From a phage, in sequence record PX670417.1: a stretch of 64,000 bases of DNA. One strand, written 5' to 3'. The position numbers and the translations under genes are program-made. Below the pieces are notes generated by a model. The model made no database searches, was not told where the DNA came from, and saw nothing but the letters and a program-made list of their open reading frames with translations. Numbering within the stretch: the first letter of the stretch is position 1; each line of letters opens with the position of its first letter. Of the stretch, positions 6,116-64,000 are shown in pieces.

Positions 6116-6613
6116 TCAAGCACAGTTTGCTTTCATTACCTTATGGATTCTTTTTTCAGCATCTTCATAAGTTTCTTTAGTAATAAACTTAATTGCTGCA
6201 ATATTGGCATTGTAGAAGAGTCTGAGCTTAGAGTCAATCCTTTTTGTCATTACATCGAATTTATGTTGGAGGTTTGCTTCACCATAAACTAGGCCACCTT
6301 TCGTGTAGTAGGTTTGGATAATGTAAAAGTCAAAAAATTCCTTTCCAAAGTTCTCGATATCTTTTTTAATATACTCAGAAGAAGTCTCATAAGTCATCCA
6401 ATCACTCTCCTTAGTGACTACCTTCTTCCGAGTCTTGCCAGCAACTTTTCTTTTGGTCACACTATTAAGCTGTTTCTTTCCGATATAATATTGTCCAGTT
6501 TTCTTACAGTGTACTAAATAGACAAAACCAAAATGTTTAGTGGGGTCAACTTCCCCACATAAAGATACCCAATGTCCATAGGTGGGACAATTGCCAAATC
6601 CTTTAATCTTCAT
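6116..6613 (-). CDS. putative GIY-YIG family endonuclease-like protein
   Basis: 165 aa; FGFVYLVHCKKTGQYYIGKK matches GIY...YIG spacing; tentative. Confidence 0.35.
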   Translation of the reverse strand: MKIKGFGNCPTYGHWVSLCGEVDPTKHFGFVYLVHCKKTGQYYIGKKQLNSVTKRKVAGKTRKKVVTKESDWMTYETSSEYIKKDIENFGKEFFDFYIIQTYYTKGGLVYGEANLQHKFDVMTKRIDSKLRLFYNANIAAIKFITKETYEDAEKRIHKVMKANCA

Positions 6614-13265: not shown

Positions 13266-13439
13266 GTAAGCCTCTTTTAAGTAACTATTAAGTTTTAATC
13301 TTTTATCTTAACGTATTCTATACGTTATACTTTAAAGCTTTTTAAAAGCTATTAAATAATCTTTTAAGAGTTTTAAAGTATCTGTATAGTTAAACTGTTA
13401 AGTAACCTTTTAAGTAAAAACCCACTTCGCAAAGATTAA

Positions 13440-13464
13440 CACCTTGTCAAGTGCATTGTCAACT
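13440..13464 (-). promoter_or_regulatory. tandem TTGACAA elements including 11-mer TTGACAAGGTG (minus strand) in divergent intergenic region
   Basis: Revcomp of 13440-13450 is TTGACAAGGTG; second GTTGACAA at revcomp 13456-13464; same 11-mer recurs at 16230 and 55714. Confidence 0.45.
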
Positions 13465-13523
13465 TGCTTTTTATAATTTTTTGCAGTAATGTATGAGGTT
13501 AATGGTTTTAGAGGGAGTAAAAA

Positions 13524-20074: not shown

Positions 20075-20085
20075 GTTGACTAGGT

Positions 20086-20110
20086 AGCCTCTTCGGAGGC
20101 TCCTTTTTAA
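20086..20110 (+). terminator. rho-independent terminator (AGCCTC-ttcg-GAGGCT + T-run)
   Basis: Stem 20086-20101 then CCTTTTT; same hairpin sequence as terminator at 4456-4473 in opposite orientation. Confidence 0.65.
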
Positions 20111-20139
20111 AAGGTCTTTTAAGAGGGTCTTTTAATGAG

Positions 20140-20196
20140 GTAAGGTGCGGTCTGGCAAGGCATGGTATGGTTGGGTGAGGTGAGGTATGGGTAGTT
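20140..20196 (+). repeat. GGT-rich degenerate short tandem repeat tract (R2a)
   Basis: taaggtgcggtctggcaaggcatggtatggttgggtgaggtgaggtatggg. Confidence 0.6.
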
Positions 20197-20222
20197 AATC
20201 GGAGCTACATTAAAATTCGATT
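20197..20222 (+). other. variant hairpin AATCGGA-gctacattaaaa-TTCGATT
   Basis: Same loop as 18820 and 20329 hairpins but different stem sequence that still pairs (three compensatory differences incl. one G-T wobble). Confidence 0.55.
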
Positions 20223-20223
20223 A

Positions 20224-20262
20224 CATCACTTAAGAGTCTTCTAAGAGGGTTTTTAAGTGATG
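20224..20262 (+). other. long hairpin (10-bp stem CATCACTTAA / TTAAGTGATG), copy 2
   Basis: Same stem as 18700-18738; loop differs at a few positions. Confidence 0.5.
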
Positions 20263-20264
20263 TT

Positions 20265-20328
20265 CGGTAGGGTCTGGTAGGGTAAGGTCTGGTCTGGTAG
20301 GGTCTGGTAGGGTGAGGTATGGGTAGTT
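20265..20328 (+). repeat. GGT-rich degenerate short tandem repeat tract (R2b)
   Basis: gttcggtagggtctggtagggtaaggtctggtctggtagggtctggtagggtgaggtatggg. Confidence 0.6.
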
Positions 20329-20360
20329 AGTCTCAGCTACATTAAAATGAGACTTACCTT
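20329..20360 (+). other. conserved hairpin AGTCTCA-gctacattaaaa-TGAGACT followed by T-run, copy 2
   Basis: Near-identical to 18820-18852 including flanks (about 80 nt direct repeat 18806-18888 vs 20318-20399). Confidence 0.55.
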
Positions 20361-20394
20361 TTTAAAAGGTCTTTAAACAGGGTGTTTTAATAAG

Positions 20395-20456
20395 GTGCTG
20401 TATGGTGGGGTAAGGTAGGGTTAGGCGAGGTCAGGTGAGGTTTGGTATGGAAGGAT
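20395..20456 (+). repeat. GGT-rich degenerate short tandem repeat tract (R2c)
   Basis: gtgctgtatggtggggtaaggtagggttaggcgaggtcaggtgaggtttggtatgg. Confidence 0.6.
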
Positions 20457-20501
20457 GGCAGTAGCCTTATAAAAAATCTGCCAAATAAGCTATAAAATCT
20501 G

Positions 20502-20530
20502 TTGACAAGTCAGGTGTTATAGCTTATTTT
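20502..20530 (+). promoter_or_regulatory. sigma70-like promoter GTTGACAAGT...TATTTT
   Basis: TTGACA 20502-20507, 17-bp spacer, TATTTT; about 45 nt upstream of gene at 20575. Confidence 0.45.
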
Positions 20531-20574
20531 TATACTCAACGTAATACAAAATTTAATATAACTTTGAGGTCATT

Positions 20575-61791: not shown

Positions 61792-62256
61792 ATGAAAATT
61801 AAAGAAGTAGTCCAAAAAGCAATGCTTGACAACTCAACTAAAGATGAAATGTACAAAGAGATTTGTGATAAGTTGAATTGTTCAAGACATGCTGCTAAGG
61901 CTCTTGTACATTGCTTTATCTGGGAATGCTCAGAAGCTTATATGCAATATGTAGCTTTTGAAAGTTCTCACTTACTAGGTGATGTAGAAGTTGGTGAGAA
62001 ACTAAAAGAACCTGAGATGAAAACAGTCCCTAAAGTTGGTAACGTATACCCTCTTAAAGACTTCAAGACTGGAAAGATTGTTGCAAAAGGTGTAGTAGAG
62101 CATGTTTATGATGATGGCGAATACTTACTTAAAGTATTTGAGTATGGTAGCCACTATACACACTTATGTGGGCTTACATTCTTTGTAACAAAAGAAGACC
62201 TCATTAAAAACAAAGACAACAAGTTTGCTGTTCCAGATTACCAAGTTTTACGATAA
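61792..62256 (+). CDS. hypothetical protein
   Basis: ORF track 154 aa. Confidence 0.5.
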   Translation: MKIKEVVQKAMLDNSTKDEMYKEICDKLNCSRHAAKALVHCFIWECSEAYMQYVAFESSHLLGDVEVGEKLKEPEMKTVPKVGNVYPLKDFKTGKIVAKGVVEHVYDDGEYLLKVFEYGSHYTHLCGLTFFVTKEDLIKNKDNKFAVPDYQVLR

Positions 62257-62269
62257 TGGTGTGATAGAT

Positions 62270-62818
62270 ATGAAAAAAGATAACTTAAAAGATGTTGAAG
62301 GCAACTATCTAGTCCTTGACTGGAATGATATTCGGGAAGCACTCTCCGAAGAAAGCCTTGACATACTAGAGCAACTTATCTTCTCAGTACGTCATACCAG
62401 AGGTATTGTAAACGGTAAAGAGCCATTAGAAGGAATCTTTGTAGAGAAGTCTTATCCGTTCTATGAAGACACTTTACAGAAAGTTAAAATGTACTTTAGA
62501 CAGAAGAACCGTAAAGTGGTCACTATGGTGTCTCTTGGTGGTCAGAGTATGTCTGTGATGGAAGATATTAACCCTAAGAGACCAAGTAAAGGTGTTTGTA
62601 TAAAAATCACAGGGCATGAAGAGTATATCTCAGTGGATGACTTTAGTGCATTCTGTAATGGTTCTGCTGTATTTAATGGGTTCCACTATGATATCCGAGT
62701 GTACCCAATCAAGGGAGATGATATCATGATGCAGATATTTGATAACAACAATGGATTTACTCATTTTTATCAGACAACCAAGTCATCACTGAAGACAGTT
62801 CTGGAAACATTGATTTAA
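62270..62818 (+). CDS. hypothetical protein
   Basis: ORF track frame (TTG 62225); ATG 62270 preferred. Confidence 0.45.
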   Translation: MKKDNLKDVEGNYLVLDWNDIREALSEESLDILEQLIFSVRHTRGIVNGKEPLEGIFVEKSYPFYEDTLQKVKMYFRQKNRKVVTMVSLGGQSMSVMEDINPKRPSKGVCIKITGHEEYISVDDFSAFCNGSAVFNGFHYDIRVYPIKGDDIMMQIFDNNNGFTHFYQTTKSSLKTVLETLI

Positions 62819-62827
62819 AATATCTTA

Positions 62828-62860
62828 AGAGCCTCCTTAATTGGGGGCTTTTTAATTTTT
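62828..62860 (+). terminator. rho-independent terminator (AGCCTCC-ttaatt-GGGGGCT + T-rich)
   Basis: 7-bp stem with one G-U pair then TTTTTAATTTTT; last gene before non-coding repeat region. Confidence 0.55.
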
Positions 62861-62948
62861 ATAAAATTTTATCGGTTGTCCCAACCTCTGGGTCACCATC
62901 ATATGTGAATAAAATATCTACCCTTCTTAACAACCTTCTTAAGCTTAC

Positions 62949-63001
62949 TCTCTATATATATAGTTATATAGTACTATATAGTATCTTAGTATCTATCTAG
63001 T
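62949..63001. repeat. AT-rich TATATAG/TATAGTA repeat cluster (DNA-unwinding-element-like)
   Basis: ctctatatatatagttatatagtactatatagtatcttagtatctatctag. Confidence 0.5.
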
Positions 63002-63014
63002 GGTCTTAATAGCC

Positions 63015-64000
63015 CCTCTGTATAACCCTTCTAAACACTCTTCTAACAAGCCTTCTTAACAACCTATACAATCACCTTAACCATCCCTCTACACCCTCTT
63101 AGAAGCCCCTATACACCTCTTAATCTCTATGTCAGCTATGTTACCCTCTATAGGTGTTCACTAGGTATTACTAAGCCTCTATATAGACTGTTTTAACAAA
63201 CTTAACAGGAATATCTTTACAGACCTTATCTCACAAGGTCTAACACGGTACTAACAAGGTATCTTATAAGCCTGTTTATGCCTGTATTTTTAAAAGACTG
63301 TCTAGGTAATTATTCAGAATTTTAAAATTTTTATAAAATAGGATTATCAAGTCATTTTTTAGGGTCTTTGAAGGAACTCAAAAATATCTGTAGAAGATGT
63401 ATATCTGCTTGGTAGCCCTTAACAGCCCTGTAACATCCCCTTTGCAGAATTTTAAAATATCATTAACAATCTCTTAACAGTTATTACATCTTCTTAACAT
63501 CTCTTCAGAGGTCTTAACAGATTTTTAACAGAACTAACAAGGGTTTAACAGTTTTCTAACAAGTGCTGAATAGTCTTTACAGATGATTAACAGATGACTA
63601 ACAAGAGCTAACAAGTTAATTTTTAAGAGTTATTTTGTTAAGATAATTAACAAGTTTCTAACAAGTGTTTAATCTTTTTAACAAGCTATTAACATGGTCA
63701 CTATCTCTTTCTTATCGTTCCCTTTCCCTCTTAGTGATTCTTTAAATAGCCCTCTTAAAAGCTCTCTATAGCTCCTTGTAAGCTCTTTTTAGTCTCTTTC
63801 TAGTAATTACACCCCAACTATGTAGAAAGCTCTTTATAGGGCTTTACAGGGGCTTTAAAGACTATGTCAAAGACTCTTACAAGGCTTTTACATGGTTTTA
63901 ACAGAGATTTAACAAGGGGCTAACAAGTTGCTAACAAGTGTCTTAAAAGCATAACTATGTAGGGTTTGTTAAGAAATTGTTAAGAAAATGTTAAGGGGGC
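63015..64000. repeat. dense array of short TAACA(A/G) / CTAACAAG motifs (iteron-like), with inverted TGTTAAG copies at the end
   Basis: At least 25 copies of TTAACAG / CTAACAAG / TTAACAA over about 1 kb with no ORFs; densest 63460-63700 at roughly 10-12 bp spacing; CTTGTTAAGAAATTGTTAAGAAAATGTTAAG at 63966-63995. Confidence 0.6.

Follow-up and report, generated by a model that had tools for sequence, protein, structure and literature searches.

The concatemer junction of T7 contains a 160-bp direct terminal repeat (DTR) that lies in non-coding DNA and is filled and flanked by arrays of a short motif, all on one strand and spaced by about a helical turn. In the T7 sequence, we observed YTAAAG units 13 bp apart at positions 176–340 and three more within the 160-bp DTR. 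To our knowledge, the function of these arrays is not settled. T7 also encodes gp18 as its small terminase subunit and employs an RNA polymerase of its own at the junction; neither is recognisable in Felix O1-type phages. Short protein-binding boxes are repeated around the terminase cleavage sites of other phages as well, as the R sites of lambda cosB and as pacL and pacR of SPP1, where a handful of boxes is bound by a known small terminase. Directional repeats beside an AT-rich, easily melted block are also typical of iteron origins of replication (lambda ori, plasmid oriV), which have 3–7 iterons of 17–22 bp.

Terminal repeats are on record for the genus Felixounavirus (Felix O1-like myoviruses). 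In four Felixounavirus studies, PhageTerm called non-permuted DTRs, which were either sized at 581 and 613 bp or simply described as 'short'; Pr103Blw was assigned DTR packaging with two 581-bp repeats (PMC8303462) and Ro111lw a 613-bp DTR (PMC6454146), and DTRs have likewise been published for UAB_69 and for Philippine isolates. In the genome paper on Felix O1, the size of the genome was the sole basis for inferring 'short terminal repeats'. The PhageTerm calls published for the genus contradict packaging of the headful (pac) or cohesive-end (cos) kind. The locus described below is in the main a short direct terminal repeat and the junction around it, a feature that earlier work has established for the genus. 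The published accounts give the length of the repeat and the packaging class only, and do not mention phased arrays, boundary elements or a gene-free junction.

Results

The window ends in a gene-free region

The window is a 64-kb stretch of phage DNA (record PX670417.1) and probably represents the last 64 kb of its record. Its last plus-strand gene (ORF 62225–62818) stops at 62818. A terminator-like hairpin comes next, at 62827–62852, which the terminator scan called as a plus-strand Rho-independent terminator with a 10-pair stem and a T run. This terminator ends transcription ahead of the gene-free region. The first-pass annotation had proposed this order of last gene and terminator, followed by more than 1.1 kb without ORFs, and we confirmed both: in the six frames of 62819–64000 (1,182 bp, hereafter the region) the longest ORF is 31 aa and none reaches 32 codons. 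In the same small-ORF check, the repeated motif itself was found to provide stop codons on either strand. An Rfam scan of 62000–64000 gave two sub-threshold chance matches and no known RNA. Chi sites, which might have pointed to RecBCD protection of the ends, are absent from the window (0 found).

By ORF and periodicity analysis, the region is made of a unique non-coding spacer (62819–63410), running from the last gene to the terminal repeat, and of the repeat itself (63411–64000). The spacer consists of degenerate same-strand units of ∼11–12 bp (CCTTCTTAACAA, CCCTCTATAGG, CTAACAAGG), has seven TAACA copies on the plus strand, and gives base identities of 0.35–0.37 at lags of 10–12 against a baseline of 0.29.

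TAACA units are phased at 11 bp

An earlier description of the region as densely packed with TAACA(A/G) at roughly helical-turn spacing held when the motif was counted. TAACA[AG] occurs 24 times on the plus strand of the region and three times on the minus strand; the plus-strand density is 20.3 per kb, compared with 0.92 per kb on each strand of the remaining 62.8 kb. The longer form CTAACAAG is present in nine copies in the region and in three in the other 62.8 kb, both strands counted. The commonest spacing is 11 bp: it separates successive TAACA copies exactly in 12 of 27 cases. Base identity at lag 11 is 0.41 over the whole region and 0.47 for 63411–64000, with ∼0.28 in shuffles, and in 300-bp windows it rises up to 0.50 (0.268 ± 0.034 window-wide). 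An expectation-maximisation (EM) motif search returned an 11-bp unit with the core YTWWNNAG, whose sharpest variants are CTTAACAG and CTAACAAG.

From the register listings, we observed that these units are arranged in successive blocks. The main TAACA array (63464–63694, plus strand) has 15 same-strand copies of the CTTAACAG and CTAACAAG types, mostly spaced by 11 bp with occasional steps of 9, 10 or 20 bp. It is followed at 63730–63894 (plus strand) by a run of 11-bp CT...AG units without TAACA (CTCTTAAAAG, CTCTCTATAG, CTCTTTTTAG, GCTTTACAGG, GCTTTAAAGA, CTCTTACAAG), and then at 63899–63937 (plus strand; repeat family D1) by four TAACA(A/G) units at exact 11-bp spacing (TTTAACAG, TTTAACAAG, GCTAACAAG and again GCTAACAAG). 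The last block (63967–64000) has the opposite orientation. Three inverted TGTTAAG units, which the first-pass annotation had noticed near 63966–63995, lie at 63967–63995 with 11 bp between them (period 11, 94% matches) and are followed by the terminal GGGGGC; read on the minus strand, the block is GCCCCCTTAACA-N5-TTAACA-N5-TTAACA. We regard it as a candidate right-terminal recognition site.

Two easily melted blocks stand in the spacer

A TATAG-rich, AT-rich cluster had been noted at 62949–63001. It is indeed there, built of 8- and 18-bp tandem units, and by nearest-neighbour free energies no 50-mer in the window is less stable than 62950–62999 (ΔG −48.0, z +4.6). The second least stable 50-mer coincides with another AT-rich block, AATTTTAAAATTTTTATAAAAT, at 63307–63356 (ΔG −50.9, z +3.8), which is partly palindromic (I18). 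Both blocks have a conservation of 0.98 in the 14-sequence alignment described below (Shy 141–160 and Shy 501–520, respectively).

The terminal repeat and its boundaries

The region is 93–96% identical to more than 230 Felixounavirus records. In the Felixounavirus Pr103Blw (GenBank MW481326), 1–581 and 87841–88421 are annotated as 'short direct terminal repeat region'. We observed that the Pr103Blw repeat 1–581 is the reverse complement of 63411–64000, with 88% identity and with identical first and last bases. The two end copies are identical within each record in Pr103Blw (581 bp), I14.1 (581 bp) and SeKF_63 (613 bp), and the end repeats of I14.1 and SeKF_63, which run from GCCCCCTTAACATTTTC to GTTAAGGGCTACC, are likewise the reverse complement of window positions 63411–64000. 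The termini of these relatives are defined by PhageTerm calls and by record ends. Six records start exactly on the last base of the window, and the start of a further one is a single base inward of the repeat's left boundary. As a query, the repeat matched 285 places in 255 records, so that ∼30 records are matched twice and could hold the repeat at each end. The relative PC79-13 also carries a 'repeat_region', which we set aside as evidence on termini; its 127-bp end overlap is typical of an assembler and uninformative.

Judged by these comparisons, 63411–64000 is the right-end copy of a 590-bp DTR with the first bases GGTAGCCCTTAACA and the last bases GTTAAGGGGGC; the duplication is seen in the relatives, and the other end lies outside this window. 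Of the several readings that had been offered for the region, that of terminal repeats is right for 63411–64000, which is collinear with the DTR of Pr103Blw and matches the ends of I14.1 and SeKF_63. The earlier statement that the region is cut by the window end does not stand, as the repeat has its conserved right boundary at base 64000. We take this base as the genome end rather than an arbitrary cut because six records start there, and it is most likely the physical right terminus of the genome. Compared with the published Felixounavirus DTRs (Pr103Blw, 581 bp; Ro111lw, 613 bp; UAB_69), the present one is homologous, has the same end bases and a similar length, and lies between the same flanking genes in the same convergent arrangement; we found no essential difference.

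Both boundaries carry conserved elements. The left cut site is abutted by a 15-mer, GATGTATATCTGCTT (63396–63410, plus strand), which the cross-relative comparison found to be identical in Shy, Moogle, SUSP2, Felix O1, finno and mio, and which has a recognisable counterpart, TTGTATATCTGCTT, in the Erwinia phage phiEa104. The repeat then opens with the left-terminal motif GGTAGCCC-TTAACA-GCCCTG-TAACA (63411–63435, plus strand; inverted-repeat pairs I1, I2 and I12). This motif and the right-terminal block 63967–64000 form an imperfect inverted pair, and thus both genome ends read inward as GCCC(CC)TTAACA-N5-TAACA. The right-terminal inverted block is kept in Moogle, SUSP2 and Felix O1 and is recognisable in phiEa104.

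The junction is conserved beyond the genus

We aligned 14 sequences from Felixounavirus, Mooglevirus and Suspvirus, with blocks numbered in Shy coordinates. In the relatives, a gene-free gap of 1.6–1.8 kb lies between convergent gene clusters, with the repeat inside it, and in Moogle the homologous gap has annotated inward-facing terminators on each side. A junction bracketed in this way by convergent clusters and inward terminators is probably not transcribed. Between genera, the gap is 75–76% identical, whereas the flanking genes are 62–67% identical. The left boundary block (Shy 581–600), made of the last 8 bases of the 15-mer and the first 12 of the repeat (ATCTGCTT before the boundary and GGTAGCCCTTAA after it), has a conservation of 1.00 across the 14 sequences and three genera, and the right boundary block (Shy 1161–1180; AAGAAAATGTTAAGGGGGC, then T) one of 0.97; no other blocks of the alignment are conserved as strongly as these two.

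Within the gap, TAACA positions are more conserved across genera than the remaining positions (0.905 versus 0.804; circular-shift p = 0.006). No such excess over the spacers is seen for the broader YTWWNNAG unit (p = 0.22). Indels of at least 8 bp between relatives are mostly of 11, 22 or 33 bp; being whole multiples of 11 bp, they indicate that whole units are gained or lost with the phase kept. In phiEa104, which belongs to another genus, a 1.4-kb gap occupies the same position and only ∼120 bp of it can be aligned by blastn; this gap has CTTAACA arrays, a ATATCTGCTT left-boundary element and inverted TGTTAA units. The extension across genera is uncertain because PhageTerm suggested headful packaging for SunLIRen, an Erwinia relative. 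These conservation data suggest, at the level of sequence, that the whole junction is functional DNA.

A possible route of processing

The large terminase subunit is encoded at 45945–47561 on the minus strand (PHROG 979, E = 1e-233; Pfam Terminase_6N and Terminase_6C). Acting in trans, this enzyme presumably cuts at the repeat boundaries. The idea of a packaging site, another of the options raised at first, stands in so far as it follows by inference from the terminal-repeat boundaries: 63411–64000 qualifies because a repeat of this kind has to be cut by terminase where it begins and ends.

We propose the following scheme. In the concatemer, a single copy of the DTR would lie in the middle of the 1.6–1.8-kb gene-free junction, with the phased TTAACA and CTAACAAG units pointing in the same direction through its body and an inverted triplet at its right edge. 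The large terminase would make the left cut after 63410 (...GATGTATATCTGCTT^GGTAGCCCTTAACA...) and the right cut as ...TGTTAAGGGGGC^TAGC..., which on the opposite strand would fall after ...GCTA. The two cut sites would then be a near-invariant, imperfect inverted pair, GCT[T/A]^G...GCCC(CC)TTAACA; the GCTW^G shared by them is short and could be a chance match. If the two strands were nicked at opposite sites and the repeat were then copied by strand displacement, there would be one copy for each packaged genome, as in the general description of the classical T7 scheme of repeat processing (PMC10438801).

We found no recognisable small terminase subunit with PHROG or Pfam, and none is recognisable in the paper on the Felix O1 genome. 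A 66-aa ORF (47568–47768), immediately upstream of the gene for the large subunit, has no match in Pfam or PDB; as a DNA-binding partner it was set aside, since a single-sequence model folds it into a two-helix hairpin (pLDDT 83) with no indication of DNA binding. Its counterpart in Bas63 is bas63_0001, and the PhageMaP study describes the segment containing this gene as uniformly essential. The product of the 66-aa ORF as a packaging partner is only a lead. A 75-aa ORF (47875–48102), also considered as a partner, overlaps two tRNA genes and is probably spurious. The Bas63 junction, at about 70,977–72,154 of MZ501086.1 and in the 540 bp that follow, is 95% identical to the region, and the text of the PhageMaP paper on Bas63 gives no score for the junction intergenic region.

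Most likely, the phased units have an architectural role or bind a protein, and so mark the junction and give it a direction for the packaging machinery or for an end-binding factor. Against this, the arrays reach more than 500 bp to either side of the DTR, and we know of no characterised terminase recognition site as extensive as that. Compared with lambda cosB and the SPP1 pac sites, to which the resemblance is no more than a lead, the region has dozens of units instead of a handful.

Alternative readings of the arrays

An origin of replication was the first reading given to the region. The phased repeats would then be initiator-binding iterons and 62949–63001 or 63307–63356 the DNA-unwinding element, instead of or besides a terminal-repeat role. 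Several observations fit: no other 50-mers of the window are as unstable as the two found here, each 98% conserved; dense directional repeats adjoin the AT-rich blocks; the gap is conserved above the neighbouring genes; there is one perfect match to a DnaA box, at 62904–62912; and in T7 a secondary origin is situated close to the left end, beside the repeat arrays. However, the units are 11 bp long with a core of 5–8 bp and come in dozens of copies (∼28 TAACA over 1.2 kb), whereas typical iterons are 17–22 bp and number 3–7. DnaA boxes are not enriched overall (80 found, 92 expected), no initiator or Rep gene adjoins the region (the only matches of the flanking ORFs are to PHROG families without a known function, with none in Pfam), and GC skew appears to track gene strand, with no origin signal in the window. 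Moreover, the arrays run through and past the proven terminal repeat. We consider the origin reading unlikely. Of the original idea, the AT-rich, meltable block stands and the iteron-type repeats do not; an origin role in the left flank is possible, and would add to the DTR role, not replace it. A partition site, also suggested earlier, found no support in a virulent phage.

The arrays might also be binding sites for transcription factors or nucleoid-associated proteins, or curved DNA, with CT(W)4AG-type units acting as a general intergenic signal of this phage, of which the terminal region would be no more than the longest tract. Low-information motif clusters with 10–12-bp phasing above shuffles are indeed seen at 13266–13523, 55587–55837 and 20075–20574, and TTAACA is one mismatch away from the sigma-70 −35 hexamer. 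We find this reading very unlikely all the same: the region shows no enrichment of promoter-like sites (10 versus 6.7 ± 2.7 expected), it lies between terminators with no genes downstream, and CTAACAAG is, by the counts given above, essentially limited to it. The position weight matrix of the YTWWNNAG unit is weak, with matches on the minus strand also raised. Since AT-rich DNA of any kind scores well with it, we did not rely on this matrix to support sites in other places.

A neutral satellite, in which slippage by a recombinogenic genome end has expanded an 11-bp unit and only the cut sites matter, would agree with the degenerate units, with length differences among relatives that are mostly whole units (11, 22 or 33 bp) and with a broad unit that is conserved no more than its spacer. 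Such a history seems highly improbable to us, as the gap exceeds the flanking coding genes in between-genus conservation, the TAACA cores are preferentially conserved, and the motif and its orientation pattern persist in the Erwinia phage, where the gap is otherwise unalignable. We give almost no credence to the idea that assembly collapsed a repeat, or created a spurious one, at the end of a contig, since, although most circularised assemblies carry only one copy of the DTR and the end overlap of PC79-13 resembles an assembler k-mer artefact of 127 bp, the sequence is found in 255 independently sequenced records at 77–96% identity, internally in most, with boundaries that agree to the base across laboratories in the USA, Canada and the Philippines.

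Discussion

The region at the end of the window is best read, by analogy, as a T7-style concatemer junction. We hold with good confidence that it is the right end of a Felixounavirus genome, composed of the DTR and its non-coding approach (62819–63410), in which the phased units would mark and orient the junction. Its architecture is that of the T7 junction, and the relation between the two is one of analogy and not of family membership. There is no sequence homology between the two; the motif is CCTAAAG in T7 and TTAACA or CTAACAAG here, the period is 13 versus 11 bp, the DTR measures 160 versus 590 bp, and the arrays extend over ∼0.3 kb versus ∼1.7 kb. The large terminase of the window is of the T4-like Terminase_6 type and has no gp18-like small subunit with it.

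Our literature searches on Felix O1-type phages turned up no account of the repeat arrays; both these phased TTAACA arrays and the unusually strong conservation of the 1.6–1.8-kb junction appear to be undescribed in the literature searched.

More tentatively, the junction could serve as a protein-loading platform, where a core phage protein cooperatively binds the TTAACA units, which are shared by the Ounavirinae genera studied here and turned around along one edge, and either replaces the small terminase or caps and shields the ends in a telomere-like manner, with an origin possible in the AT-rich left flank. We put this forward as a speculative extension of the junction reading. If true, it would unite the start of replication, the protection of ends and recognition for packaging in one conserved non-coding module.

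For annotation, a true end at 64000 together with a duplicated 63411–64000 gives the correct length and start of the genome, and the duplication accounts for the doubled read coverage in such assemblies. For phage engineers, the terminal repeat is DNA to be kept intact. The junction also offers a tractable place to study how DNA is recognised for packaging in Felix O1-type phages, which lack a recognisable small terminase.

Spacing of the TAACA units and a palindrome beyond the right end

Within the direct terminal repeat (DTR, 63411-64000), the TAACA copies at 63420-63690 follow one another in series at 11 bp, and steps of 9, 10 or 20 bp break these series. If unseen units are assumed in the gaps, there would be 26 units in 270 bp, a mean spacing of ~10.4 bp. 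As this is close to the helical repeat, the sites would stay on one face of the DNA; this could be due to chance.

An 8-bp palindrome, TTACGTAA, lies 6 nt beyond the right DTR boundary (TAGCWTTTACGTAAC), a position just past the window end that was read in relatives (6180-6200 in phage Shy). The palindrome is kept in Felixounavirus, Mooglevirus and Suspvirus, and is not conserved in Erwinia phage phiEa104.

Three public records were found to be irregular. PP892526.1 (I14.1) carries the GenBank label Tequintavirus on a Felixounavirus sequence, and OR687644.2 (PC79-13) has a 127-bp end duplication typical of assembler overlap. The third, GU169904.1 (147 kb), is named 'Staphylococcus phage SA1' yet includes the Felixounavirus junction with 94% identity; chimerism or contamination is the probable cause.

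ORFs beside the large terminase gene and in the tRNA cluster

On the minus strand, 7 nt separate the end of a 66-aa ORF (47568-47768) from the large terminase gene. This ORF is homologous to bas63_0001, which lies in a segment of the relative Bas63 reported to be uniformly essential. The 66-aa product, for which no match was obtained in Pfam or PDB, is predicted to form a two-helix hairpin (pLDDT 83), and we regard it as a candidate packaging partner.

A cluster of 25 tRNA genes occupies 47991-53552 on the same strand; in one of these (49928-50002), ARAGORN reported an abnormal anticodon loop with the two-base anticodon 'ac'. The 75-aa minus-strand ORF at 47875-48102 matches PHROG 20550 (E 6e-53) and overlaps tRNA-Cys and tRNA-Ser. 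This ORF is probably spurious, as is the protein family that was built on it.

Phased units in other intergenic regions

The 500-bp intergenic region 20075-20574 contains three loosely repeated modules. In each of them, G/T-rich runs (GGTCTGGTAGGG, GGTGAGGTATGGGTAG) come after CTTTTAAG-type units, and CTACATTAAAAT stands at the end. The runs are periodic at 5 and 10 bp (0.39 at lag 5, 0.40 at lag 10).

Another element, CACCTTGTCAAGT(G/C)C(A/T)TTGTCAAC, is common to the intergenic regions 13266-13523 and 55587-55837, both of which are divergent (head-to-head). It is preceded by CTTTTAAG / CTTTAAAG units with a phasing of 11-12 bp. These two regions are probably early promoter regions having phased upstream elements.
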